DNA from: Convolutriloba macropyga | Taxonomy: Eukaryota | DNA: 64,000 nt | Reading direction: 5' to 3' | NCBI RefSeq assembly: GCF_964194025.1 | Contig: NC_134479.1 | Location: 16,988,001 to 17,052,000 of the forward strand | Part shown: piece after piece, positions 10,500 through 46,046 of the stretch | How positions within the stretch are numbered: the first letter of the stretch is position 1 | Layout: each line of letters begins with the position of its first letter | Program-made: the position numbers and the translations under genes | Notes under the pieces: generated by a model | The model's database searches: none | Seen by the model: only the letters and a program-made list of their open reading frames with translations | Told to the model about the DNA's origin: nothing

Positions 10500-11897
10500 T
10501 TTATAGTCAAAACGTTCTGTCGATTGGTATGGATCGACACAATTTCTCTGTTGCAATTGCGCAATTAGGAGGACAGAAAGAAATCGCTGATAATATCAAA
10601 TTTTGTTCGTTGTGATGGCATCTAAGTTCTCATCAGTTGACTAGAATGGATTAAAAGTAAAACGAGATCCATATATGTACTTGCAGTACTTGATAGACAA
10701 CCTGCGCCAATGTGATTGTTATCATTCTTTTCTTTGGTTTAAGGGTTTTTCCGTACGCTCTGTTATTCGTTAATTCAAACAACATTTTTTGAGTGTGTTC
10801 CAATAGGAGTGTCTCTTTGGTGTTCATTGTGATATACCGCTCCAGCCAACTCTCTTGCAGAAACTGAATGAGACAATGTGATGCACGTTTTCGGATATCA
10901 AACCAAGTAGAACGTAAATCTAAGGGTTCTGAGGTTGAAGCGTATGGACTGTTTTGTCTGAGACTGTTTGTAGCAACATAGGGACAATTGACAACGACAG
11001 CACGACAATCAGCTCCATTTCATCTGGTAGCCACTCATCATGTATCATTTTTTTGGTGCTAGGGAAAAATCACAATTGGGGTCTCGTATGTCTTGTGGAT
11101 ACATTAGGTCGACTTCAAGGATCTATTATAAGGAAAAATCAGATGACGTATTGAGTTCCTGCTCGACTGACATGCATCTCAATATGTATTCATCTACTAT
11201 CTATTTAGATGCTTTGGTCACATGATGCCACCATGCAGGTTGGTCGATCACCATGCATCGAAAACAAAAACAAAAATACACTTAGCGTACTACATTATAT
11301 CTCCACGCTCCCTGGTTGTCAACAATTGAAAATTAGGCCGGGAGTTTTTGAAATTATCGTCACCAGCAATGTTTGATTCGCTGTAGTGTTATGCACGTCT
11401 TTCATGCATAAACGCTTCCAAAGTGCTTCAAAAATGCACACCATTGAAAGGGTGTCAAAATTCAAAATCGAGTTATTGTAGTCTTTAAAACTACGACAGT
11501 TATTTTTTCTTCAAAACAGTTCTTGCTTTTTGTAATTCTTATTCCGGAATCTGCAATTTTCCGTTCTCTAGTTTGCTTTTCCAGCATTCAATTGAAGACT
11601 TGTTCTGCTGCGAACTTCGATTTTCCTTTCATGTATGAAAATGAATAGATTCTTTCTCCTTTGTTTGAAGCTAGTTCATGACTTGCATTTTCGAAGATAG
11701 CATCGAAAAACGGGGAAGCTTAATTAGGGAGGGTGGCAACTAACTTTTCCGGCAATGTATTTCGAAACTTGAATGAGAGGAAAAAGTGCAAATACTCATA
11801 AATTGATTTGAGTTGTCCTTCTCTTGTCCTGACTTTCTCAACAGGGACGCTAAGTGTCATCGATATACACTTCTTGTCTGTTGGGGGGATGACGATG
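10500..11897 (-). pseudogene. pPolB remnant (duplicate of 6100-7691)
   Basis: Same motifs as the unit-1 copy, with an extra internal deletion near 10585. Confidence 0.7.
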
Positions 11898-14149
11898 AGC
11901 AGTACGGTAACCTAACATATGCTTGTGGGAGGGGGGGGGGGGTTGGGCCTCATTCCCTACAAAAATTTCAGGGACCGCAAAACTGATTTTCCGCCAAAAA
12001 TTTTTTTGTTTCGATCAAACCTTCTAGCATCGTACACCTATTTTCCAGCCGAAATAGTTATTCTTATGGCAAACTACGAACACTTAATTGTTACTTTTTC
12101 CGTGGATATTCATTTTTGGGAAAGTTTTAGAACATTTTTGTTTCCTAATGCGCGCAAGAGGAAAATTCGTTTTGAAATTTTTGCATTTAGGAAATGCGGA
12201 ATTGTTAAAACTTGTTAGCTATTGTTTACGGCGGGGATTTTATGCGAAATAAATCAAAGCGGAGCTACATCTTGGAAAACAAATCACAGACTACAAAAAT
12301 AATTGAGCATGCTGTGTTTTATGGATTTTGAAATTAATATGCTTCACAGTTGCAGAAGTGGTTCAATTAAGATTTAAATAAACTATGCCGGCGAAAGCTG
12401 TTTGGAAATTCATTTTTGTAGAAGGACACAAATCTCTGTTTAAGAATCAAAAATTTTGTGAGTTAAATTACGAAAAAAAACTGCCTTCTGCGCCCCTGTC
12501 AAATAATTAACGTGCAAACCCTAACTTGGGCTCTAGAAAGAGAATTTTAACCTTTTATTCTCAACCAAAACACTCTCACAAAATAACTTTGTAAAATCTG
12601 AAAGCTTTCTGACAACAATGACACAGTTCAAAATTAGGAGCTCTAACTTGATTTTTAAAATTGATAAGGAAAATTTAGAGCCACCTAACAGAAAATCACA
12701 AGAACCGTCATATATGAAACTGTACTAGATATAAATAATCATTTATTTTCATTTCTCATTCATCAAAGGACGTCAACCACAAAAATTGTCTCCAAATTTG
12801 ACACTTATAAGTTTACCAGACCGTTGTTAGCGGTAAAATCTTTTATCGACTTTGTCCAATTTGTAAAAAAGTTTTACTTTGAATGAACAGGTTTGAAGAC
12901 TACATTAAATATATTTGTCCAAGTTAGGTGGGCGGGTAATTTAAAAGGAAGACTGGACAATTCATCTGAAATAATTCCCCTTTCTGTATTTAGATCAAAA
13001 ACTATTTCCTATTTCGAAATTTCTACAATTTATTTGAAGATTTTTGGTATATAGGACTACGGATTATGGAGGGCAGTGTTTAAATGGCGTTAGCAGAATG
13101 TCTGTTAGCTGAAAATTTTTTTTCGTTGAAAGCATTGAGATAAAAATGATTTCTTTCTCAACATTTGTAGTGTAATAATGTCTCTCTTTAGTTCATTTCT
13201 TTTTCTTTCCAATTTAGTTCGAATTCAAATCTTTTTGTTCATAACCTCATTGCATTCCAATGTAATGGGTTTGTGGTAGATTCCATCCAAGTATCACCGT
13301 TTACTGCGATGAAAATCAAAAATCTTCATGGCATAGACATTTGCCTTCTCAAAGCAAATGGCGATGTCTATGTCGTAGATAGGGGAGGAGGAGCACTTGA
13401 ACATCATTAACAAATTGATTGATGTCAAATCTGTCCACATGCAGGATGATGACAGACTAGAATAGATGATATTCCAACTCATGGTCCCAGTATTTACCAA
13501 AAACTGGGAATTAATCCCCTGATATATATAGTGGTTCTACTATTTTCAGGTAAGGCTGATTTAAACCTTTTTCTTTCCAAAAAAAATCTTCAAATTAAAA
13601 ACGAACAAAGTGGAAGTTAAGTCCTTTAAAAAATGATAGGCAATCCATTTTAAATCTCTATTGTTTGTCAGAATTATCTCTATAAGCACGCGTGCCTTTT
13701 TTGAACAGTGGGTAATACTTTCTGTCTTGCAAAAAAAATTCTTTTGCAACTCGAGAAAATGATAATAATAATAAGATCTCACCGCTGTTTGTTTCTTAGC
13801 CCGTTCTTTGATTGATAGCCTTCCTTCTTCTGACTTTTCCAACGAACATCCCTCAGTACTGGTTGATGTTCGACGTGTTTTCCCGCTTGAATCAATTTGA
13901 AAACGTTGGGAGTAATTTTATTTGTTTCATCTTCATCAAATTTTGGATAAAACTCAAGAACATCACTCTGTTTTACATTTGTTTTTGAGGGATGATGGGA
14001 ATCAAGATCAAGGCTTTCTCTCTTTCTGGTAGTTCAAAAACACTATAAGTTTCAGCGGTTTCATCTCCCCAGTCAACTTCTTCTTAAAAATTTTTGTTGA
14101 ATAACTTGTCCCTCAGACTGTCATGTCCAACAGGTATTGTTGTTTTACG

Positions 14150-16600
14150 GTCAGTGTTGATGTAACCTTTATGCCCGTACGCACTTAGGGCGATCTTGTT
14201 GAGGCAGTCAGATTAAAATTGATGCTTATCCGAGCTAAACTGTATTATTATAGCTCTCAAGAGGTTATTTTTCTGCAAAGTTTTTAAACAGTTCGTGTGT
14301 TATTTTAGCTTGAGTATACTTCTTGGTTGTGTTAACACAAATTGATAAATGGCCGTGCAATTATTGATTATAATTTAGGTTTTAAAGCGCCAAACTCTTC
14401 AATTGTTGCTCCTAAAAGTTTTCTTCAAACTTGGGGTCGGTTTAACCATTGAAGCGATCATCTAGCTGATCATGTTCTCTAAAAATTGAAAGATTAAAAT
14501 GGCTTCTCTAGGTTAAATTTATGTCTCAATTTTTATTAAATTTGGTACGATCCATTTTGTAGAAACGCTGTGTCCGAATACAAAATTTGATACTCTGTTG
14601 CCTTCTTTGTAATAATATAGCGAAAGCGTGACATAAACAGGTTTGACGTTTCTAATATGCTAGCTCATACTGTGGTTGGCTTTGTCCTCTATGAACAAGA
14701 ATTGGCTGTTTCCTCCTTCTAATCAGTGAAAGTCCCTTTTCCAAAATTTTGATGAAAGAATTGATACCATACGAAATGGCATTGGGTAGTTCAACCTCAT
14801 TCTTGGCAAAAAAGTTACTCTATTTCTTAGGCTTTTCCGACTGTTGAGTTGGACATTAGTTTATATAGGGCCTGATTCATTTTAAACACTGCTTTCTGAC
14901 GTCTGTTAGTGTTCAGGTTAACGATGTTTGAGAGTCATTTCGATAAACACATTTTGACTGCACGGTGCAATTTGTGGAATTTCATTCCAATGGATACAAA
15001 AAATTCAGGTTCCAGTAATGAGTAACATACTTTCTTGAGTGATATGCATGTCTCACTTTTTTTAATTTGCAGTGTGAAATCTTTAGAGGAAATTTAGTTC
15101 AGATTGATATTCGCTCAACTGTACAAGATCCAGAGGTTCTTTATTCGATATTAGAGGAAAGTCACTGTGTTTGCCATATAGTTGATCCAGGTAATCAAGG
15201 TCTGCTCTTACAAAATGTCCAGTATCTCCCTCATCATTATTGTTCAACATTTCTTCTAGGCCGATCTGCGCCTCAATTTCGAAGCTCTTGAGAGCGAGAG
15301 GAAAGAGTAGCATGACTCCACCGTAAAGGTTGTTGGCATCAATCTACAAGATAGACGATGATTCTTTTGTTTCATCAAAACTGTTTGGTGTAGAAGTTGT
15401 GGAAGTTTCTGAACAAAAAGTGTACTGTTTCCAAACCATCTCGGATCAATCTATCCGTCAAATCTAAGATGTTACGATTTGTCAACAATTCAAGATAAGG
15501 CTTAAAAACTTTGAGAAAAGCTTTTCCTGACAAATTCAAACCGGTTTAGAACTGAACACAATCGAGTCTGTAAGTCTCATTACAAATTGCTCTTCAATCG
15601 TCAAATCAGAAAGCGAATTGAAAGCCATCTCCTGTTAAGTAAAGCTCGAGAATTTTTTCGAGATATGCACAGCTGAACACTCTAAACAGTTCCTGGAACT
15701 CTTCAATTTGTTCCAGCATGATGTACATAATGATATATATTTGAGACCGTTTTTCTGATTCTGTATATTAGGGAGTGATGTTTCAGAAAGGTTTTGGAAC
15801 AAATCAGTGAAAGAGTACGCAAAACGTCCTTTCCTTTTCAACATTCTTTTTTGATCGGCTGAGGTTCCTCTATAGAAGTTGTCTAATATAGTATATTTGT
15901 TGTTTGGATAAAGTTTAAAACAACTTATCTGAGCTGCTAAGCATAAAAAGCAAGCCGTCTATGAAACTCAAGTACTCTTAAACAGCAATTTTATTTCTTT
16001 TACGTTTTTTTTGCTTCAACATTGACACCAAAGTTCATGGCGATAAGTTTTCGTCAGAGGTTGGAATGACGTCAATTTGTATAATTTTGGAAGCTGAGTA
16101 AAATGATTTGACGATATGCATGTCATCGCTCATCACATCATGCGCAAAACAATTGATGCAAATCTTAATGTTCTACGCTTCAGGTAACAGCCACAACGTA
16201 CAAATATTCAGCGAAACATCCAGTAAAATTGCAATGATCTCTAACTATAATTGTTTACTAGCTCTGTATTACAAATACAGAAACAATTATGGGCTTTTTT
16301 AGAGGTTGCTACTCTGGTAAATTTACAGAATCTACTCTAGTTGAAGAAAAAGTGTACTAGTTCTTCTAATTTCCCTGCGGTCAGGTCCTCTATTTAAGTA
16401 ATTGTATTGATGTCATAGTTTTCTGCTCAATTTCCATAGTGCAGTAACTACAGGTTGCGTGAGGTTCGATAACGCAAATATTGGCAAACTTTTGGTCTGC
16501 TCTTGGCATTGCCAACAGGTACACATAGCAATTCCTGATCAAGTTACACTACAAATGGTGAGAACGATCTTTCAACGTAATTGTCCAACGCTATTTCTTT
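14150..16600 (-). pseudogene. Protein-primed family B DNA polymerase remnant
   Basis: LKRKGRFAYSF (exo region), IDANNLYGGVM (motif A, ~15310-15345), LYKLMSNSTVGK (motif B, ~14835-14870), ILYSDT (motif C, ~14570-14590), EEFGALKPK, and NKIALSAY/GH at the C-terminus. Confidence 0.88.
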
Positions 16601-16699
16601 TTTCTCGGGATCGAGCAAAATTGTTGTTATTTGTACTGATTCACTATTTTAACAAATTTTCTGATGATTATTAAACGATTCCTCAAATAAGCTAACACG

Positions 16700-17900
16700 A
16701 CAAAAAGTTCGGCAAAGAAAACCTTTAGAGGTTTGTCATTAAGAAAACAGAAGTTCTGTACTCGATTTTTAGAGGAAAGTGACTGTTTTTATCAAGTGTT
16801 TAATCCAGGTACTCACGGTTTGTTTCTACTATACACCCTACATCACCCTCATCATCAGTGTATCTTCTAGGCCAATTTCCTCCACATTTGCCAGACCCTT
16901 GAGAGGGAGAAAATAATATAACATCACTCCACCGCAAAGATTGTCAGCATCAACGTATAGTATGGACGTCAATTCTTTTTTTTTCACCCAAAAACACTGA
17001 GAAGTGAACAGTTAGAAACTTCTGAGCGAGAACTAAACACCGATGCCAATTGATCTTGGATCAACCGTTACGTCAAATCTAAATTGTTACGATTTGTCAA
17101 CGGTTCACGATGAGGTTTACCAAATTTGACAAAAGTGACTCCCGACAAGTTCAAGAGGCATAATAAAACTGAAAACATACCAGCCCGTAAATCTCATATG
17201 AAACTGCTCCAAATTCTTCAAACCAGCAATATAATTGAAGGACACCTGCTGTTCAGAAGAGCTTAACAAACTCTCTGATACTTGCATAGTTGAAATCTAT
17301 AAAAAGTTTTCGGAGTTCTCTAAGTTGTTCCAGCATGATAACAACATCATTATTTTTTAGACCTTTTCTTCTATTTCTTGATATCAAATGGGAATTTTTC
17401 AGAAACTATTTGAACGAATCAGCGTATGAGTTTTCAAAACTTTTCGTTGATTGGCTGAGTATTCATTGTAGAAGTTGTCTAATATGGTAAATCTGTTGTT
17501 AGTTAAAGTTTGGATTAGCTTATCAAAGCTGCTAGGCATAAAGTGAAAGAAAGCTGTCTATGAATCTCAACTACTCAGAGACAGCAAATTCATCTCTTTT
17601 GTTTTTTTTTTCGTTTCATTGTAGACCTCCAATTTCAAGGCGAGAAATTATTTGTTAATGTTTGGAATAACGTAAATTGTTGTAAACTGGGAAGCTGAGT
17701 AAAGTGCTCAAGCGGTATGATGCAAGTCATTTTTCATCACATCTTCTGCAACGATTGGTGTAAAATTTTTTGTTAGTTTTTGTAAAATGGGAACCTGAGT
17801 AAAGTGATTTGACGATATATTAAATTTCGTAGGTCATCGCATTTTCCTCGACGATTGGTGTAAATTTTATTGCTCTACTCACGGTGTGCATATCCAACGA
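16700..17900 (-). pseudogene. Further pPolB remnant (exo to motif A region)
   Basis: SILYVDADNLCGGVM...GCIVETNREYLD...SHFPL; diverged paralog of 15100-16150. Confidence 0.75.
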
Positions 17901-19723
17901 AACATTCTGTAAAAAGACAATGATCTATAATTTTTTTGTCGCTGGCCATTTCAGTAAAACAAATACAGCATGAGTTATAAAATTCTTTATTCAGTATCAC
18001 TCCAGTGTGATGAGGGAATTCACGTTTCATATTGTACAAAAAGCGTGCCTTTCCACTCGTGACAAAAAAGTTTTTACGTTAATTTGAGAAGTCAAATTTA
18101 CACATTTTTTTCCCTAATGATAACTTTTAACCGTTCTAAATATTTGATTTTGTTCCACAGCTAAAAGGACTACCGAAAATCAATTTCAAATTTCTTGGTT
18201 TCCACAGTTACAAGGACTACCAAAAATCAATTCAAATTCCGAAGTAAAGATATTTACTTCGACTTCGTCCATTTCCTCGAAATTTGAGATTCCCATAAGG
18301 CTCTTCGTAGTATCAAAGTCACCCGTACGTTGTTTTTGCTATTGGGTTATTGTTGGTGAACTTAATAACATTTTATTGAAGTTCTGGAAGATTACCAGTG
18401 TTTCTTTTTTGTAACCCAGATGCTATGCTGCAGTATAACAGTAACAAAACAATTATCATCTTTTCTGCTGTGAATGTTTAGCAGGTTTGAAATTCCTTTA
18501 AAAAAATGACCTTTTCGAAAAAGTTTGCAACTACTGCCACGAACATGTGCAAGTAGTTGCAGCTTCGGGCTAACATCTCGATAAATAGTATCCGCCAGCC
18601 GCTTCCATGGCTGGAAGACTGTGACCAGTATTTTTACAATGCTACCAAGGAGTTATGTAAACGTTACTTTTTGAAGTCTAGTGTGGTAAATTGATATATT
18701 GTTGGTATTGAATTGAACGGTAGTTCTCTCGATTACTTCTGTTCAAGATTTTTTGAAGACTTAATTTGACTGTTAGCTGTAGTTTTTGTGGATATTGGTT
18801 TGTGTGCTTCCTGGCTATGAATAACACTTTTTTCCGTTTCGCGAAAAGCTACTCCATGACATCCAAACTATTAGAATCAGGAATGTTTCGTAACTGTGGA
18901 TTCCACCGTTGATTGATGTAACTGTTGGGTGCAGAGGAATAAAGTCTTTGGGGTCCTTGACAAAAATAGGTAGACCAGTTTCAATATTGTAGTGGTCTGC
19001 ATCTTGAGGTATCAATTGAAAGCTGATGTTTATGAATAATTGGTTTTAACCATTGGTTTCTGAGGATTAGTAATCAAATGATTGCGTAACAACAGTAGGC
19101 TTTTTTCCTCTGCCGTACATTGTAAAGGAACTGAAACGCATCAGAAACAATGTTTGTTTCATTTTCAAAATTTTTAGCGCTCGTCTATGGATAAGCTGTG
19201 AAGAACACTGATAAGAGTAAAGAAACTGCAATAAAAAATAAACAATTCTAATATGAATTGAAGATTGAAACAAAATGCGGAGTTTCAAGCAAAGAAAAAC
19301 TGTAGAAAAAATGGTGTCTGATTGGAAATAAAATTAAGCACAATGAAGACTATCGAAGTGTGAAATTTGAAATTCAGTGACAATTTGAAAGTCAAAAAAA
19401 CGTTTTCCCAATCACTGATTGAAAATGTTTCCATGATAATTTTGTTCAAGTTTAAACCGACTTGAACTTTGAAATGCGAGTGAGTGCGAATGATTTTGTA
19501 TTAAAATTTTATCTTTTACACATTTACATCTTAAAGATGTTTATTTTGTCAGTAGGCATTGGCACCGGAAACCCTCCAATGGCCTGAAAGATGAAAGAGT
19601 AAGAGCGGACATAAGTTAAGTGATTTTTTACTGTAAGTTGAACGAGGTGTCCGACTTTTCCATGCAAAAAAAAATTCAGAAAAAAAATTCGGTGGTTGAA
19701 ACGCCTGATGTTGATAAACATTT

Positions 19724-23982: not shown

Positions 23983-24767
23983 ACCATCTCTAATGCTTAT
24001 TGGTATTGATAGTAGCCCCTGTAGCCTCTCTCTAAGAAACAGAAGTACGTTATGTTCAACTACGAAATGCCATCAAAATAAATCGGACTTAAAAAATGTT
24101 TTTGTAAAAAAAATCTTTTTTTTTAATCTTTTTTTTCCCGATTCCCTCATAGGCCGTTCTAGGTCTAGTTGTTTGTTGAGTCAATGAAAATTCTTTGAAC
24201 TGTGCGTCAGGACTTGTCCTGCTATGTTTTTTTAATTTGTCTCCATCGATGGTTCTTACGACCTGACTTCTTGGAATTGACTTTTTCAATGACTTCTACA
24301 GCTTTGCAGTTAAAATTTGTGTGCGTGACGACATTTCTGCTTTTAATATCAATTTTGCAAAAGCTCTTTTAGGGCTTTTTCCTGATAGGTTGTATGTGTC
24401 ATAAAATTGCCAGTCCGAATCTAACCCAAAAAGTCTAGTTGTCTATTAAAGGACTGGTGGTCGATCTGTCTATCTTATTTCTTTAGTTGTTACAAATCAT
24501 GGAAAGCCACAGGCGTCTATCGTCCAGTTTCAGGAACAAGCGTCTATCGTCCAGTTTCGGCATAGCAATGCGTGCTGATTACATACGCAAGCGTTTTTTA
24601 TTAGTTTTTGGCCTAAATTAGTTATGGTCATGGAAAAGTTCATTTTCAAGTATTTGCCCAATAAGAAATTATATAAGAAAAGGTTAAAAAATGTGTTCTA
24701 TGAAGTGGAATTTTTTAATACTGGTTATTTGCTGTAGTAAATGTAGCATTGGATGCTTTTATTTCAG

Positions 24768-25391
24768 GTTGCGAGACGTCGCCATGTCAGAAACATTTAT
24801 GCTGAGAAAACGAAGAGAATCAAATTTTCCTCAGTGCATGTTGAAAATCGACTTATCGCCTCCTTAACGTACGAAAGAAGCTTCGCTATTCCAAACGAAA
24901 AAGTATTTCACATTACAGTTCTATCTGTTAGGATGAAGTTCAGAAAGTTGGGTTTGGGACAATTTCTTGTGGATGAAGTTAAAAGCAAGAAAGACAAATT
25001 CGACACTTTAGCGGTTCTGGCAGACACCGATGCGGTTCAGTTTTTCAAAAAGCAGAATTTTACTCAAGATTATTTGATTTGCTCACGATATGAGGATTTA
25101 ATTGATACCTGGACCGACTGTGTTATAATGATATATATCCCACCGGTTTTGGACCCGGAGAAAATTGAGTTAGAGAAAGATCTTGAGTTTGTTGACAGGC
25201 AAACTAAATTTCTTCAAGATGGGTCTCTGAAGTTGTATCATCAGCAGTTTGGATTAGTTACCCAATTGAAAAACGAGGCAGTTGCCACCCGCAAAATCAT
25301 TGATATGCAGAAAAAGATAATTCACTCTTTGATCAAGGAAATTATGTCGAATGAAGAGAATCAACAAACTACAACTAGTAGCAAAAACTGA
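24768..25391 (+). CDS. GCN5-like GNAT acetyltransferase, coding exon 2 of 2
   Basis: Acceptor TTTATTTCAG|GTT, phase 0. Acetyl-CoA motif A VRMKFRKLGLGQFL and LADTDAVQFFKKQNF (GCN5: YADEYAIGYFKKQGF). Coiled-coil-like tail; AATAAA at 25426-25431. Confidence 0.87.
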   Translation, partial: VARRRHVRNIYAEKTKRIKFSSVHVENRLIASLTYERSFAIPNEKVFHITVLSVRMKFRKLGLGQFLVDEVKSKKDKFDTLAVLADTDAVQFFKKQNFTQDYLICSRYEDLIDTWTDCVIMIYIPPVLDPEKIELEKDLEFVDRQTKFLQDGSLKLYHQQFGLVTQLKNEAVATRKIIDMQKKIIHSLIKEIMSNEENQQTTTSSKN

Positions 25392-28775: not shown

Positions 28776-29754
28776 CAGGACTCTAATCGGGGAGGGTGCG
28801 GGTTGGAACCCCTACCTAGTCAGAAGATTTCTGCATAATAACAGTTTCTGTAGCCTGTGACCCCTTCTAAATTGATACCTTTGACAGTCCTTCGGATGCA
28901 ATCCGTTCGACGTTACTCTTTTTGTGTTCAATTTGATGAGGTCTGAGTAAAAATACAGTTTATATGAGGTCTTTTGGATTTGCATTTCCGCCACAACAAT
29001 TAGAATTTGAACCCTCCTCAATCTCGAAACTTGATCTGATTTTACGCTACAACTGGCAATTTCTGGCGAAAAATGTCTTGACATAAGCCGAAAGCCTCCT
29101 GGCCATGTAAAATTTTAAAATCGACCTATAAAGAAATTTATGTAACTCCTGACTAAGTCCTGACTAGGTTGTTTCAAAGTCGTGACTAGGTTGTTCTACC
29201 ACCTGCAACTTAAATTCTTTAGAATTCACTTTCCAAAAGTTATTTCATTTTTTGTGATTTGAGTAATTTAAGTGGGTTTTCTGAGAGTTCTTGAAAGCTA
29301 ATAATGTAAAGGAAAGGCAGTTTTCTGATTTTTGCGTTGAAAGTTCAGAAATTCGTTGGCTTTTTTAAAAAGTTTAAACACTTTGTATTTACTCTGTATT
29401 TACTCTACGGATATGAGCTAAACGATTTCTTTGAGTTTCAACAATGAGTCAATTCAGAAGAGCTGCTTCTGTTGAATCATGTTTTAATGTGTTAAGGTAA
29501 GCGTTAAGTAAGTCTCTTAAGTTTATGCGAGTTGGTATCTAACAGTTTAGATATAGATTCTCGAATGGTATGAAAACTTATATAGCAGCTCAAAATAATT
29601 TGCTATAAGCTTAAATACATAGACACAAAATCAGAGTTAAATTTAGATAATAATAACAGAAATGTTTTGAAGAGCTTCAGTACGTGCAGCTGTATAGAAA
29701 ATAAAAAGCTTTAATATTGTGCTTTGAATTTTCACATGAATAGAAACTAATGAG

Positions 29755-30038
29755 ATGTTTTTGACAAAACTAGCGCGAGGTAACTTGTTGAACGTCGGTA
29801 GATTTTCGGGGTTTGGCCTTATTACAAATTTGCGAGACGGATTTTCTATCCAATCTAGAACCAAGGCCACTCTTCCCGATTTGCAGTATGATTACAATGC
29901 CCTGGAACCCTATATTTGTACTGAGATTATGCAATTGCATCATGGCAAACACCATCTAAATTATGTCAATACTTACAATGCTGTGGAGCAACAATTAGCA
30001 GATGCTATCGGAGAGGGAGATACCAGTAAGGCTATCAG
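29755..30038 (+). CDS. SOD2: Mitochondrial manganese superoxide dismutase, exon 1 of 3 (233-aa model)
   Basis: Arg-rich targeting peptide, then [18 protein letters not shown]...[12 protein letters not shown]; donor AG|GTTAGT, phase 2. Confidence 0.95.
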
Positions 30039-30267
30039 GTTAGTTTTATTGAACTTCATCGAAAACTTGCTAATTTATTGCGGAACGAGGGAAATTGGAA
30101 ATATGAGTCGTGAAGCTGGCCTCTGTGTGTTCTTAACTTATGAGTCAAATATCTATACCTAAAGTATAACTAGGTTGAGGTGCTCTTTCAAATTAACTTA
30201 TAATCAGAACATCTTGAACGCACACGGAAGTGAGGGACGAGCACCGTCTAAAAAGCAAGCCAAAGTC

Positions 30268-33200
30268 TGATCATAGTCAAAATTGGACCAAGCTTAGTGT
30301 CAGCATTGCAGAGCTCAAACCACTATACAAATGAAACACTAACTTATTAGAGGGCCAATGTTGTTTGTCATGAAGGAGAGTGAGAGACAAAAAGAACAAT
30401 GAAATCAAACAAAAACAAGCATTACAAATCACCAAAACTCAGTCTATTAAAGAAACGAAAAAATGAAAATATCAGATAAAAACTTAACTAAACCAAATGA
30501 CTTGTGCTTCACCAGAACAGATATGGGACCTGTTTTTTATTGAGAATAAGTAATTAGTAGACAGAAAACAAAAAGCGATAAGTTAGAAAATACGTTTACA
30601 CTTTTTGAAAACGGTTAAATTGAAAGTCATGAAAGCAATTAGCAAACAACTGAATTCATTCAATGGCTTTATTTATACTTTCATACAAAACCTTCGAGAC
30701 CTATCATTATCCAGAATGTCATACGACTAAAAAAGGAACGAATACGGGCTTAAAATCAAAGGTATTTCAATGTTGCGAGGAAACGGCGTCGAAGCCTATA
30801 AAATAAAATTCTATTCACTAAAAATATTGCAAAAAAAAATCAATTGTACTTTCTCATTATTGCGCTCTCTCATCTCTTGTCATTATTGCGCCATTAATAT
30901 GATGATCGGACAAGACAACAAAAGAGAACCTCGAGAACTGATCAATATCAAAATAAATTTAAAAAATTTCGAAAATAATGCCAAAAAGCCATTATTTAAA
31001 TATTAAAACAGCAATGAAGACTAAACTTTAATTTACTTGAAACAGAATGCTGTGTTTCTTTTTTTTGCAGAATTCTTTTTGAGACTACGCTTAAAGATGG
31101 CATAAATAAGATTGGAAGTGGCAAATCTCAAAAAACCATCATTTTGAACTAAAAATTGGTAAATAGATTAAATGTTTTTGCTTAGGAAGCTAATTGGACA
31201 TGTCACCATCGGTACTAAGTCAAAAGACTACAATTTAAAATCGCATACAGGCAAAACTGAAAATTTCACCAAAATTTTTACACAAATGGCGTTGAAGCCA
31301 AAAAACCGTATTCTTTTCGCTAAAAATTGTTATTTTTTATTAGTCTCCATTTGGACGTAAATTTGACCTGTTGCTTCTCCATTGAAACAAGAATTGTTCC
31401 AATTCTTAAAAAAATAGCTAATTTGACCGAAAAGTTGTTATATCAAAAATAAATGATGAATTTTGAAATTTTATCGAGTTATTTTACCAAAAAACCATTG
31501 TATCAACTGAAGGCATAAGATAGTTTTTTTGTAGCTCTGTGGATAACGAATTAGATATATGAATAATCAGACTCAGTCATAAGACTATAAAATGAACCTC
31601 TACTGCTTGGAAAACTCAAAGAATTCGTTAAAAATTGAGAAAAGAGTTAGTCGGAGCCATATAAACCATGAGTTTTTAAATGAAAATAGACTGCCCTGTA
31701 ATTGGATGAAAAAATTGCAAAAAATGGTTTTAAAAGGACACCTAAAATACAATCGGAATCCTCTTTCAATGCAAAAATCAACGATGAGACCAAAACTTTC
31801 TTAGGAAATGGGGGTATAATTAGCCCCTATCTGAGTAAAGGAAGAGTGTCAGCAGTTATCTCTGCACCATCGGTGGTCAAACTGGACAATGTGGGACAAA
31901 TAGGCATTTTTGAAGATATTTTGTTATGAAATAAAGGAAAAATTGCTGAATTTTTAAAAATTTAGCTGAAAATTTTGCCAAAACAGTTGGTTCAAACAAT
32001 TCACCAACTCTTAACTTGTGAATTTCTTTGGTTCTTTAATCTGATTCTGCATTCAATCAAAGCCCGCTCTAGAAAGCTGTTAATTGTTTAGTCTACCTTT
32101 TAGAAAATAGTGGAATATGATCATAGTCAAAATTGGACCAAGCTTAGTGTCAGCATTGCAGAGCTCAAACCACTATACAAATGAAACACTAACTTATTAG
32201 AGGGCCAATGTTGTTTGTCATGAAGGAGAGTGAGAGACAAAAAGAACAATGAAATCAAACAAAAACAAGCATTACAAATCACCAAAACTCAGTCTATTAA
32301 AGAAACGAAAAAATGAAAATATCAGATAAAAACTTAACTAAACCAAATGACTTGTGCTTCACCAGAACAGATATGGGACCTGTTTTTTATTGAGAATAAG
32401 TAATTAGTAGACAGAAAACAAAAAGCGATAAGTTAGAAAATACGTTTACACTTTTTGAAAACGGTTAAATTGAAAGTCATGAAAGCAATTAGCAAACAAC
32501 TGAATTCATTCAATGGCTTTATTTATACCTTCATACAAAACCTTCGAGACCTATCATTATCCAGAATGTCATACGACTAAAAAAGGAACGAATACGGGCT
32601 TAAAATCAAAGGTATTTCAATGTTGCGAGGAAACGGCGTCGAAGCCTATAAAATAAAATTCTATTCACTAAAAATATTGCAAAAAAAAATCAATTGTACT
32701 TTCTCATTATTGCGCTCTCTCATCTCTTGTCATTATTGCGCCATTAATATGATGATTGGACAAGACAACAAAAGAGAACCTCGAGAACTGATCAATATCA
32801 AAATAAATTTAAAAAATTTCGAAAATAATGCCAAAAAGCCATTATTTAAATATTAAAACAGCAATGAAGACTAAACTTTAATTTACTTGAAACAGAATGC
32901 TGTGTTTCTTTTTTTGCAGAATTCTTTTTGAGACTACGCTTAAAGATGGCATAAATAAGATTGGAAGTGGCAAATCTCAAAAAACCATCATTTTGAACTA
33001 AAAATTGGTAAATAGATTAAATGTTTTTGCTTAGGAAGCTAATTGGACATGTCACCATCGGTACTAAGTCAAAAGACTACAATTTAAAATCGCATACAGG
33101 CAAAACTGAAAATTTCACCAAAATTTTTACACAAATGGCGTTGAAGCCAAAAAACCGTATTCTTTTCGCTGAAAATTGTTATTTTTTTTAGTCTCCATTT

Positions 33201-33968
33201 GGACGTAAATTTGACCTGTTGCTTCTCCATTGAAACAAGAATTGTTCCAGTTCTTAAAAAAATAGCTAATTTGACCGAAAAGTTGTTATATCAAAAATAA
33301 ATGATGAATTTTGAAATTTTATCGAGTTATTTTACCAAAAAACCATTGTATCAACTGAAGGCATAAGATAGTTTTTTTGTAGCTCTGTGGATAACGAATT
33401 AGATATATGAATAATCAGACTCAGTCATAAGACTATAAAATGAACCTCTACTGCTTGGAAAACTCAAAGAATTCGTTAAAAATTGAGAAAAGAGTTAGTC
33501 GGAGCCATATAAACCATGAGTTTTTAAATGAAAATAGACTGCCCTGTAATTGGATGAAAAAATTGCAAAAAATGGTTTTAAAAGGACACCTAAAATACAA
33601 TCGGAATCCTCTTTCAATGCAAAAATCAACGATGAGACCAAAACTTTCTTAGGAAATGGGGGTATAATTAGCCCCTATCTGAGTAAAGGAAGAGTGTCAG
33701 CAGTTATCTCTGCACCATCGGTGGTCAAACTGGACAATGTGGGACAAATAGGCATTTTTGAAGATATTTTGTTATGAAATAAAGGAAAAATTGCTGAATT
33801 TTTAAAAATTTAGCTGAAAATTTTGCCAAAACAGTTGGTTCAAACAATTCACCAACTCTTAACTTGTGAATTTCTTTGGTTCTTTAATCTGATTCTGCAT
33901 TCAATCAAAGCCCGCTCTAGAAAGCTGTTAATTGTTTAGTCTACCTTTTAGAAAATAGTGGAATATGA
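30268..33968. repeat. Near-identical 1.85-kb tandem duplication in SOD2 intron 1
   Basis: 30268-32117 and 32118-33965 differ at about six positions by eye; TGA microhomology at the junction. Confidence 0.97.
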
Positions 33969-34322
33969 CCTTTTAGAAACCTGTGGAATATCTTCAGTTG
34001 ATTACCATCCAGTAATGGTGAGTTATACCTGCTTGAAGATTTTTTATGGACTTAAGATATAAATCATGTGTGCAAAAGGAGATATTACCTATATTCTGCA
34101 AGAAATTGGTGGAGCATTAAATGACAGGTTGACTGAAGAAAAAAAACACCGTGGTCGATTGGGTACCAAAATAGTGTGGATGAACCTTAAAAAACTTTGG
34201 GTTGACGATAATAGTGGGCTCGACCATCTAATTAAAGTTGGGAAATTAACCCCCCCCCCCCCCCATTCAACTTTAGACTTTTCATATGGTCATTATCTGT
34301 ATTTGCCCTATTTGTGTTTCAG

Positions 34323-34503
34323 TTTGCAACGTAGTTTCACACTCAATGGAGGCGCACATTTGAACCATTCTATATTCTGGCAGAATTTGTCCCCCAATGG
34401 AGGAGGAGAACCTTCTGGAACCCTAGCGGATATGATCAAGTCTGCCTTCGGATCATTTGACGTGTTCGTTGAAGAAATGTGTTCGAAAACGATCGCTATT
34501 CAT
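34323..34503 (+). CDS. SOD2: MnSOD exon 2
   Basis: Acceptor TTTCAG|T; [23 protein letters not shown]...FGSFD; donor CAT|GTGAGT, phase 0. Confidence 0.95.
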
Positions 34504-35569
34504 GTGAGTTATACGCTAAGGCCAGTGTTGTTTGCTCGTTGTAGCTATACGAAGTGGTAGCTATTATTAATTTACTCCGGCTTTTTAAATTAAGTTCGGA
34601 TTTTTCGACATAATAGTATTTCGAAAATGCCGCCAGGTCAATTAAATTTGACAGTTGCGAATAGTAATTTAATTCTCATACCGATTCTTTGGGTTCATAT
34701 ATTTATGCTAGCAACTCATGAGAATGTAGCTATATGGGTTGTAGCGCATATGAACGTTCTAGTTGGTAGGCAAGAAGATGGGGGTTTATCCATGGGGGGG
34801 GGGGCAGATTACGTCAGTGATTATTTGCTCCCAAACGAAGTTTGTAGCAATTGTATGAGTTATGTCGGTCTCCTTTTATGCAAATTTTTGCTTGACCGAC
34901 TTTTCGTGACCCATTTAAATTTTTGTCCTCAAAAAAGGATAAGAGGTAGCGCCGAACGGGCATTAAGTTCTCTTAGAACCTTTCAGCTCACTAGTCTCCA
35001 AGTATGTGACTCACAGAAACTGTTTTGGATACTTATACGGGTGGTTCCAAAAGGTTGAACCCCGCCACCTCCCTCCACCCCCCACCCACATCAGCCGCCC
35101 TCCCACTTCACCCCCCCCCCCACCAATCCCCACGCCTGCACATCGTTCAAGAGCACTTGATTTCCAATGTCAGATATATAATACCGTGGCAATGGGAGTG
35201 TGTAAATAGTAATGAATGAATAGAAATAACTGAAGTGAAAAAAAGAACTCCTGGACAAAACGTAGATCAAGAAAACTCAAAGTCTCTCCATGACAGGCCT
35301 CGATACCTAATTTTGTTGGAATAGTGAAACTTCTCAGTGAAAGGTCCTTATTTTATAGTGTTGTCTTAACATTCTGCAAATTCTCGCTCTTTTTGAAAGC
35401 GTTTGATATTATGAAGTCATTCCATGAGCTCACTGCACTTGCGAAAAAACAATTTCTTGAGCAGTTAGTTTGAACTTTACGTTTAAAATGAATTTTTTCC
35501 GAGCGTTTGTTTTGGTGATATTTGATTATTGCAGCATTCAGATTATGAAAAGCAGGAACTGTTTTGAGT

Positions 35570-45288: not shown

Positions 45289-45472
45289 CTGGAAAAAGGA
45301 TGATAAGCTGCCTATTTTATTGTATTTTTTTAACCAGTCTTTCGGAAGGATATTTGAGCGATCGTATTCTTTTATTGGATCCTTTCTTCTTGTAATGCTA
45401 CTCAGCTCCACTTATGGAGCGCGTGACATTACATGGTAAACTATTTACGTAAAAATGCCATGTGCTCATGGG

Positions 45473-45709
45473 AGTAGTAATAGAGGCTGACTAGAGGAAC
45501 AACGGTGGGGGGGGGGGGGGGGGGGACAATTTGAGCACCGCCATTTTTACAACGGGGTGGGATGCCAAAATTTTTTTTGACCTGATATCAAAATCTTCTC
45601 CTTTTTTTTCGCCGAAGTGCAATTTTAGAAATTTTTGTCCGTCCCCCCAAATTGCGTTACCCAAATTGTCCGTCCCCCGTTGTTCCTCTAGTCAGCCTCT
45701 ATTACTACT
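45473..45709. mobile_element. 237-bp miniature non-autonomous Maverick-type element
   Basis: Perfect 33-bp TIR AGTAGTAATAGAGGCTGACTAGAGGAACAACGG; 6-bp direct repeat CATGGG at 45467-45472 and 45710-45715. Confidence 0.85.
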
Positions 45710-46046
45710 CATGGGATTCCTAGTCAAACGTCGACCATATGAAAACACAAATAAAGTCGAGGTGGTGCGATTTCCTTGCCTAAATTATATGGTTGAGCAC
45801 ACTACTAAAATCGACCCAAAGTCTTCATATGTCTATCAACGCCCTCTTTATACCCAATATCGGTCGAACATGGTCTTTCCATCAGTCGACCTTTGATTCG
45901 AGTTGCTAATAATATGCACACTTAAAAGGTGCGAAATGATATGAATCAAAAAGCCATCAAAATGTGGGAAAAGGAAACTTTAAAAAGAAATTGATAACTC
46001 GTGTTTGTTTTGCCAATAAATTTAATGCTTTTTCGATAAATCTTAC

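Follow-up and report, generated by a model that had tools for sequence, protein, structure and literature searches.

The 237-bp element at 45473-45709 of the window, the 64,000-nucleotide stretch of Convolutriloba macropyga DNA analysed here, is a fusion of the outermost parts of a Maverick's two ends, and it belongs to a recurrent class of unique, end-to-end Maverick stubs. The class is a newly described variety of an already known kind of deletion product. We consider it somewhat probable that this stub, and the class with it, arose by collapse in place through aborted break repair.

The original prediction had described an element of 237 bp with perfect 33-bp tips and an exact CATGGG duplication, and all of these features are confirmed. 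The perfect terminal inverted repeat, which begins AGTAGTA, occupies 45473-45505 on the left (plus strand, with its (AGT)2 start) and 45677-45709 on the right, and the exact direct copies of CATGGG lie at 45467-45472 and 45710-45715. When duplication lengths of 4-9 were tried, 6 alone fit directly at the tips. An 8-bp, hAT-type duplication (CTCATGGG, overlapping the right tip) was considered and rejected, because it would break the symmetry of the tips and because the duplication is of 6 bp in 16 of 23 stubs and in 17/17 long elements checked. The left tip is followed by a run of 19 G (45507-45525, plus strand), a feature whose length varies among all relatives, versus 5 C only on the right side. 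Beyond the 33-bp tips, the inner arms are 80% complementary over 30 further bases (4 differences in 21). The element has a folding z of -10.4, and nowhere else in the whole window is there a perfect inverted pair of 20 bp lying within 1 kb. It resembles a MITE in being short and non-coding, with inverted ends and a target-site duplication. It also carries two marks of autonomous Mavericks/Polintons, namely the end motif, which is (AGT)2//(ACT)2 or (AG)3//(CT)3, and the 6-bp duplication; being geneless and of 237 bp, it is not itself such an element, which would have pPolB and integrase genes and a length of 13-25 kb.

The best other genome matches to the element, among the best-scored candidates, reach 78-81% and are restricted to its bases 1-171. 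These matches are the ends of long elements; a Maverick deletion derivative is recognized by just such homology of its arms to the ends of Mavericks with genes. Together with the (AGT)2 ends and the 6-bp duplication, the homology of the arms bears out the Maverick origin that had been proposed. A sampled long copy of a sister subfamily has domains of pPolB, rve integrase and A32 ATPase; inverted repeats in this subfamily extend for about 135 bp, beyond which the two ends diverge. The left arm of the 237-bp element (45473-45643, plus strand) extends past the ~135-bp repeat into sequence that, in the long relatives, is exclusive to the tRNA-bearing end, and the element therefore combines roughly 170 bp from one end with roughly 65 bp from the other. 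The right arm, with its 33-bp tip, takes up 45644-45709 on the minus strand and amounts to ~61-66 bp. A 13-bp direct repeat (45635-45647 and 45666-45678) is present where the two arms join, in a junction zone that spans 45635-45678 on the plus strand; the exact break cannot be placed, because a close parent is absent.

The tRNA in question is a tRNA-Met(CAT) gene located 0.25-1.5 kb inside one end of the clade's long Mavericks, where it adjoins a TATG microsatellite. It was detected by ARAGORN at 8 of 19 loci and by Rfam at 3 of 3, and it is present in the long elements L021 (1247-1318), L029 (1218-1289), L007 (1340-1411), L012, L013, L017, L018, L019 and L022. We take this tRNA to resemble an initiator tRNA.

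The local Mavericks of the window are of other kinds. The tip of the element had been said to follow the same plan as those at 4715 and 7692, and in outline this is so, since the window tips at 4715, 7692 and 9048 all have AGTAGTA, about 25 bases and a G run; yet only 14-16 of 33 bases match the tip of the 237-bp element, and these tips therefore represent other families. The same mismatch rules out the local Mavericks as the parent of the stub. In the genome, the 4715 family has 14 tips, forming 5 pairs of 4.3-23 kb and zero stubs, and the 7692 tip is unique. The three tips come from two families and lie within 1-18100, a region with degraded Maverick genes on its minus strand (integrase at 167-619, ATPase at about 1740-2410, and polymerase fragments at 7100-7690 and 14570-18050). 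The tips at 4715 and 9048 carry similar flanks, as do tandemly duplicated ends elsewhere. Tandem duplication of element ends together with host flank is common, with 15 clusters at 0.4-5 kb spacing among 470 tips and the same flank in 6 of the 7 clusters viewed (examples are L179, L181-L183, L185 and L186).

The element lies in a host intron, as had been claimed. In run X5, one contig skips 45289-46046 and joins the sequence on either side, the ends of this 758-nt interval read CT..AC, which is GT..AG on the minus strand, and the flanking exon frames are open; the 237-bp element therefore sits in a minus-strand intron, 184 bp from its 3′ splice site. Elsewhere in the window, the region comprising 24747-25391 and 29740-34560 contains a host GNAT acetyltransferase exon according to Pfam, and exons there read like Mn-superoxide dismutase, which we presume them to encode.

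The insertion had been thought recent, and a second allele speaks against this. In run X3, a different sample from the same study as X1, one contig covers the stub junction and the right flank; the junction is the same, 7 letters and 12 gap positions separate the two alleles within 190 bases, and the stub therefore predates the split of the two haplotypes. Alleles of the flank are 6-8% different in places, and the perfect tips and duplication bound the divergence at about 3.8% per lineage. On these sequence comparisons, the stub appears to be neither fresh nor ancient. Among the listed contigs of four runs, which as contigs cannot show fixation, there is no empty-site joint; the assembly yielded no alternative haplotype of the site in the best 40 of 188 candidates scored, and no long allele was seen at the stub's own site. 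Run X6, which bears another organism label, contains 151 identical bases at a depth of 2.8.

The class to which the stub belongs emerged from a genome-wide census. The tip pattern has 517 matches in the genome versus 0 in the control. The census used 470 of these 517 tips and, for a second type of tip, 100 of 105, and two-ended elements were defined by pairing neighboring tips, the search requiring near-intact ones. Among the 158 two-ended elements, 12 are ≤300 bp (11 of them independent), 3 are 301-700 bp, 7 are 0.7-12 kb and 136 are >12 kb, so that the sizes are bimodal. With uniform breakpoints in a 19-kb element, the expectation would be 0.00016 for the ≤300-bp class versus 0.40 for the 0.7-12 kb class. 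Target-site duplications are exact in all 17 long pairs checked, one of which is within a microsatellite; the other long pairs are defined by spacing alone. Randomly drawn unpaired tips include further stubs, with 6 of 90 having a second tip that was changed or different.

The collection comprises 23 independent stubs from many Maverick subfamilies, ranging over 76-627 bp with a median of 173 bp. Their 6-bp duplication is exact in 16 cases, has one mismatch in 3 and has two or more mismatches in 4. Four of the stubs are situated in local duplications, and one, of 116 bp, is an almost pure palindrome. Tandem duplicates of 124 and 187 bp were dropped from the count, as was a 489-bp fold-back (L128, G000:C4:1093700) that has Maverick-like tips, no duplication and an inverted repeat extending beyond it into flanking sequence. 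No junction is common to two sites among the 23 stubs, and identity of >85% between stubs is confined to tandem duplicates with the same flanks.

An asymmetric-end family, mostly of 12-25 kb, has two different tips that are alike for 7-9 terminal bases, and one of its ends folds back over ~220 bp (examples are L174/L175 at G000:C3:4086868-4102982, L157/L155, L158/L082 and L162/L152). The single copy sampled has integrase and ATPase matches and a weak polymerase-like match. A supposed set of amplified fold-back minis of 220-250 bp (32 of 80 sampled tips) was discarded, as these are actually ends of long elements of this kind. It had been suggested that the 237-bp element would define the minimal cis-acting end. 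Long elements of the asymmetric-end family have exact 6-bp duplications in 4 of 4 cases with 7-9 common tip bases, and the 33-bp inverted repeat is therefore not an integrase requirement; such elements narrow the needs of the integrase to a few terminal bases. The 47 pairs of the family comprise 4 stubs, 2 elements of 2.8-4.3 kb and 41 of 12-25 kb. Stubs arise at a similar rate in this family (4/47 pairs) and in the symmetric families (8/111), and pairing of inverted repeats is therefore unnecessary for stub formation.

The junctions of the stubs provide a further line of evidence. Scoring required a parent match of at least 0.82 of the maximum, which made 12 of 22 independent stubs scorable; the 237-bp stub, with a best parent match of 0.55 of the maximum, is outside these 12. 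Microhomology at the 12 junctions is 0-6 nt with a mean of 2.2, where random joins average 0.77 (P ≈ 0.0006), and the scorable class thus has the short microhomology or filler at unique junctions that is associated with abortive gap repair. The arms kept are 30-241 bp long, except for one of 630 bp. Both ends retain ≥30 bp in 22/22 stubs analysed; on one side of a further stub, only ~19-32 bp are left. One locus (G000:C11:10.41-10.43 Mb) has a stub of 302 bp as well as an element of 18 kb, which have in common the 107-bp host flank and the six bases preceding them; this stub therefore originated where a long element was inserted. The layout is that of an 18-kb element missing its last ~19 bases, then a copy of its 107-bp left flank, and then the 302-bp stub. 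The long copy (L177/L178) matches integrase, ATPase and other Maverick genes at 78-98%, and a polymerase domain query gave no match to it. Of the 23 loci, this one alone, itself a complex duplication, showed long and short forms at a single insertion site.

The sequence of events that we consider somewhat probable is as follows. A Maverick of 17-20 kb would have been placed in the intron by its integrase, generating the CATGGG duplication, and would subsequently have been excised or broken. Repair would then have copied 30-250 bp inward from each side, with the sister chromatid or the homologue as template, and stopped; the stopped ends would have been joined at 0-6 nt of microhomology, at times with a templated switch, of which the 13-bp repeat in the 237-bp element may be a trace. 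The short stub would have been tolerated in the intron and would have been immobile since. The break may have been a programmed excision or ordinary damage. To our knowledge, that a retrovirus-type integrase can excise an element has been proposed in the literature rather than demonstrated. A circular Maverick with one repeat has been interpreted as a possible excision product, according to the accessible part of 10.1101/2022.07.12.499685. Abortive gap repair is the accepted origin of deleted Ac, P, Tc1 and Mutator copies, as described in the available text of PMC3814204, and the types of junction in the stubs agree with end-joining following P excision as far as the available sections of PMC2895639 describe it. 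Retention of at least 30 bp at each end also fits integration that needs intact ends, and the share of stubs is inflated by selection against longer insertions.

Other explanations place the events differently. A defective genome could have formed outside the chromosome, by a polymerase jump or from a broken genome whose ends were held by integrase, and have been integrated once, its inner ends being joined by host repair; we regard this as possible and on balance doubtful. It would account for the exact 6-bp duplication in 16/23 stubs and for the ≥30 bp kept at both ends in 22/22 analysed, the stubs from asymmetric-end elements would fit protein-held ends, and short microhomology is compatible with it as well. 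However, the C11 stub occupies the same site as a long element, and a short replicon should outnumber its parent and leave identical sisters, whereas stubs with a sister elsewhere number 0/23 (upper 95% bound 12%). The lack of sisters weighs also on the proposal that the 237-bp element is a MITE-like parasite, copied and reinserted by a helper Maverick, as the original prediction supposed. Its intact tips and exact duplication are of the expected form, many long elements of sister subfamilies have ends that are 95-99% identical, with exact duplications in 17/17 checked, other Maverick subfamilies look recently active, and a non-autonomous Polinton has been named in zebrafish (Polinton-1N1_DR, in the accessible text of PMC9341505). 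Nevertheless, a MITE is expected in many copies, uniform in size and junction, at sites independent of one another, and here no second copy was found in the best 40 of 92 and the best 40 of 188 candidates scored, where matches reached at most 81% over bases 1-171, and no junction is common to any two of the 23 stubs. A matching active helper also failed to appear. Among the 71 listed tips of the subclade, 3 match the 33-bp tip exactly, two being those of the 237-bp element and one that of a 174-bp stub, and no long element among those listed carries it; moreover, two of the long elements closest to the stub have fragmented Maverick genes. We judge the parasite to be very improbable. A single in-situ deletion product, which had been named as the competing possibility, is likelier, although the event is recurrent, with 23 independent stubs.

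It seems unlikely to us that the stubs are due to ordinary random deletion, or to recombination between repeats within the ends that would leave a 'solo end' comparable to a solo LTR, with short remnants then being favored by selection. Short G-run motifs are indeed repeated in both orientations within the ends, and shorter insertions are, as a matter of general knowledge, better tolerated; but the frequency with which both breaks lie ≤250 bp from the tips far exceeds what uniform breaks allow, and the junction overlaps of 0-6 nt contrast with the >30 bp that single-strand annealing needs according to the available part of PMC3814204. A 'solo end' formed by annealing at long homology was rejected on account of these overlaps. 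Collapse in place remains the reading that we favor.

Several known systems share features with the stubs. Linear DNA viruses such as adenovirus and AAV form defective or snap-back genomes that keep just their two ends, as the stubs do, and the 116-bp stub is nearly palindromic in the same manner; unlike those genomes, the stubs are known here from genomic sequence alone and not as replicating or packaged forms. Non-autonomous Polintons are usually described as kilobases long and multi-copy, whereas the stubs are 76-627 bp and single-copy. Both types have Maverick ends without polymerase or integrase, the Polintons in print being, in the portions of the sources available, Polinton-1N1_DR (PMC9341505) and Tlr1, which is sometimes so called (PMC5499653). 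Deletions of Ac/Ds, P, Tc1, Mutator and Ozma, as presented in the available text of PMC3814204, likewise keep the ends and the duplication, have lost the interior and show short microhomology or filler. In those systems, excision is by a known transposase and the products often amplify into families, according to the same text, whereas for the Maverick stubs the enzyme would be a retrovirus-type integrase, excision is putative and 0/23 have been amplified.

Animal Mavericks have (AGT)2//(ACT)2 ends and a 6-bp duplication, as set out in the accessible sections of PMC8097293 (Barreat and Katzourakis 2021). The 237-bp element agrees with them in end motif and duplication, and its long relatives agree in having pPolB, rve integrase and A32 ATPase. 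In contrast to this geneless stub of 237 bp, the intact vertebrate Mavericks of that source are 12.7-24.6 kb in length, with repeats of 46-1447 bp. Its survey, in the part describing the search, was seeded by integrase and polymerase matches 4-40 kb apart, and was therefore blind to stubs; the survey of PMC10748475, from its accessible text, was likewise gene-first and would miss them. Maverick remnants of several sizes occur in C. elegans (available part of 10.1101/2024.01.15.575659), and no non-autonomous Polintons were seen in the anole (available part of PMC3014272). The accessible portions of PMC6431247, PMC9683012 and 10.1101/2025.02.07.637071 contain nothing on mini Mavericks. We found no description of MITE-sized Mavericks among the papers listed by our literature searches, and short non-autonomous Polintons may be recorded in supplements or in Repbase.

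Finally, we note that the single 237-bp element is inert and carries little weight by itself; it is the stub class, which escapes gene-first surveys, that bears on the route by which an integrated Maverick leaves the chromosome to replicate. A tentative and rather doubtful extension is that the stubs are donor-site scars, in which case Mavericks would excise themselves, about 7% of the two-ended copies would be aborted repairs of the resulting holes, and cutting would need only a 7-9-base tip and the G run. If true, the stubs would document, at the level of the genome, the excision step assumed in the Maverick life cycle. The presence of tiny, two-ended remnants beside dozens of recently active long copies makes the question of excision testable by genotyping alone.
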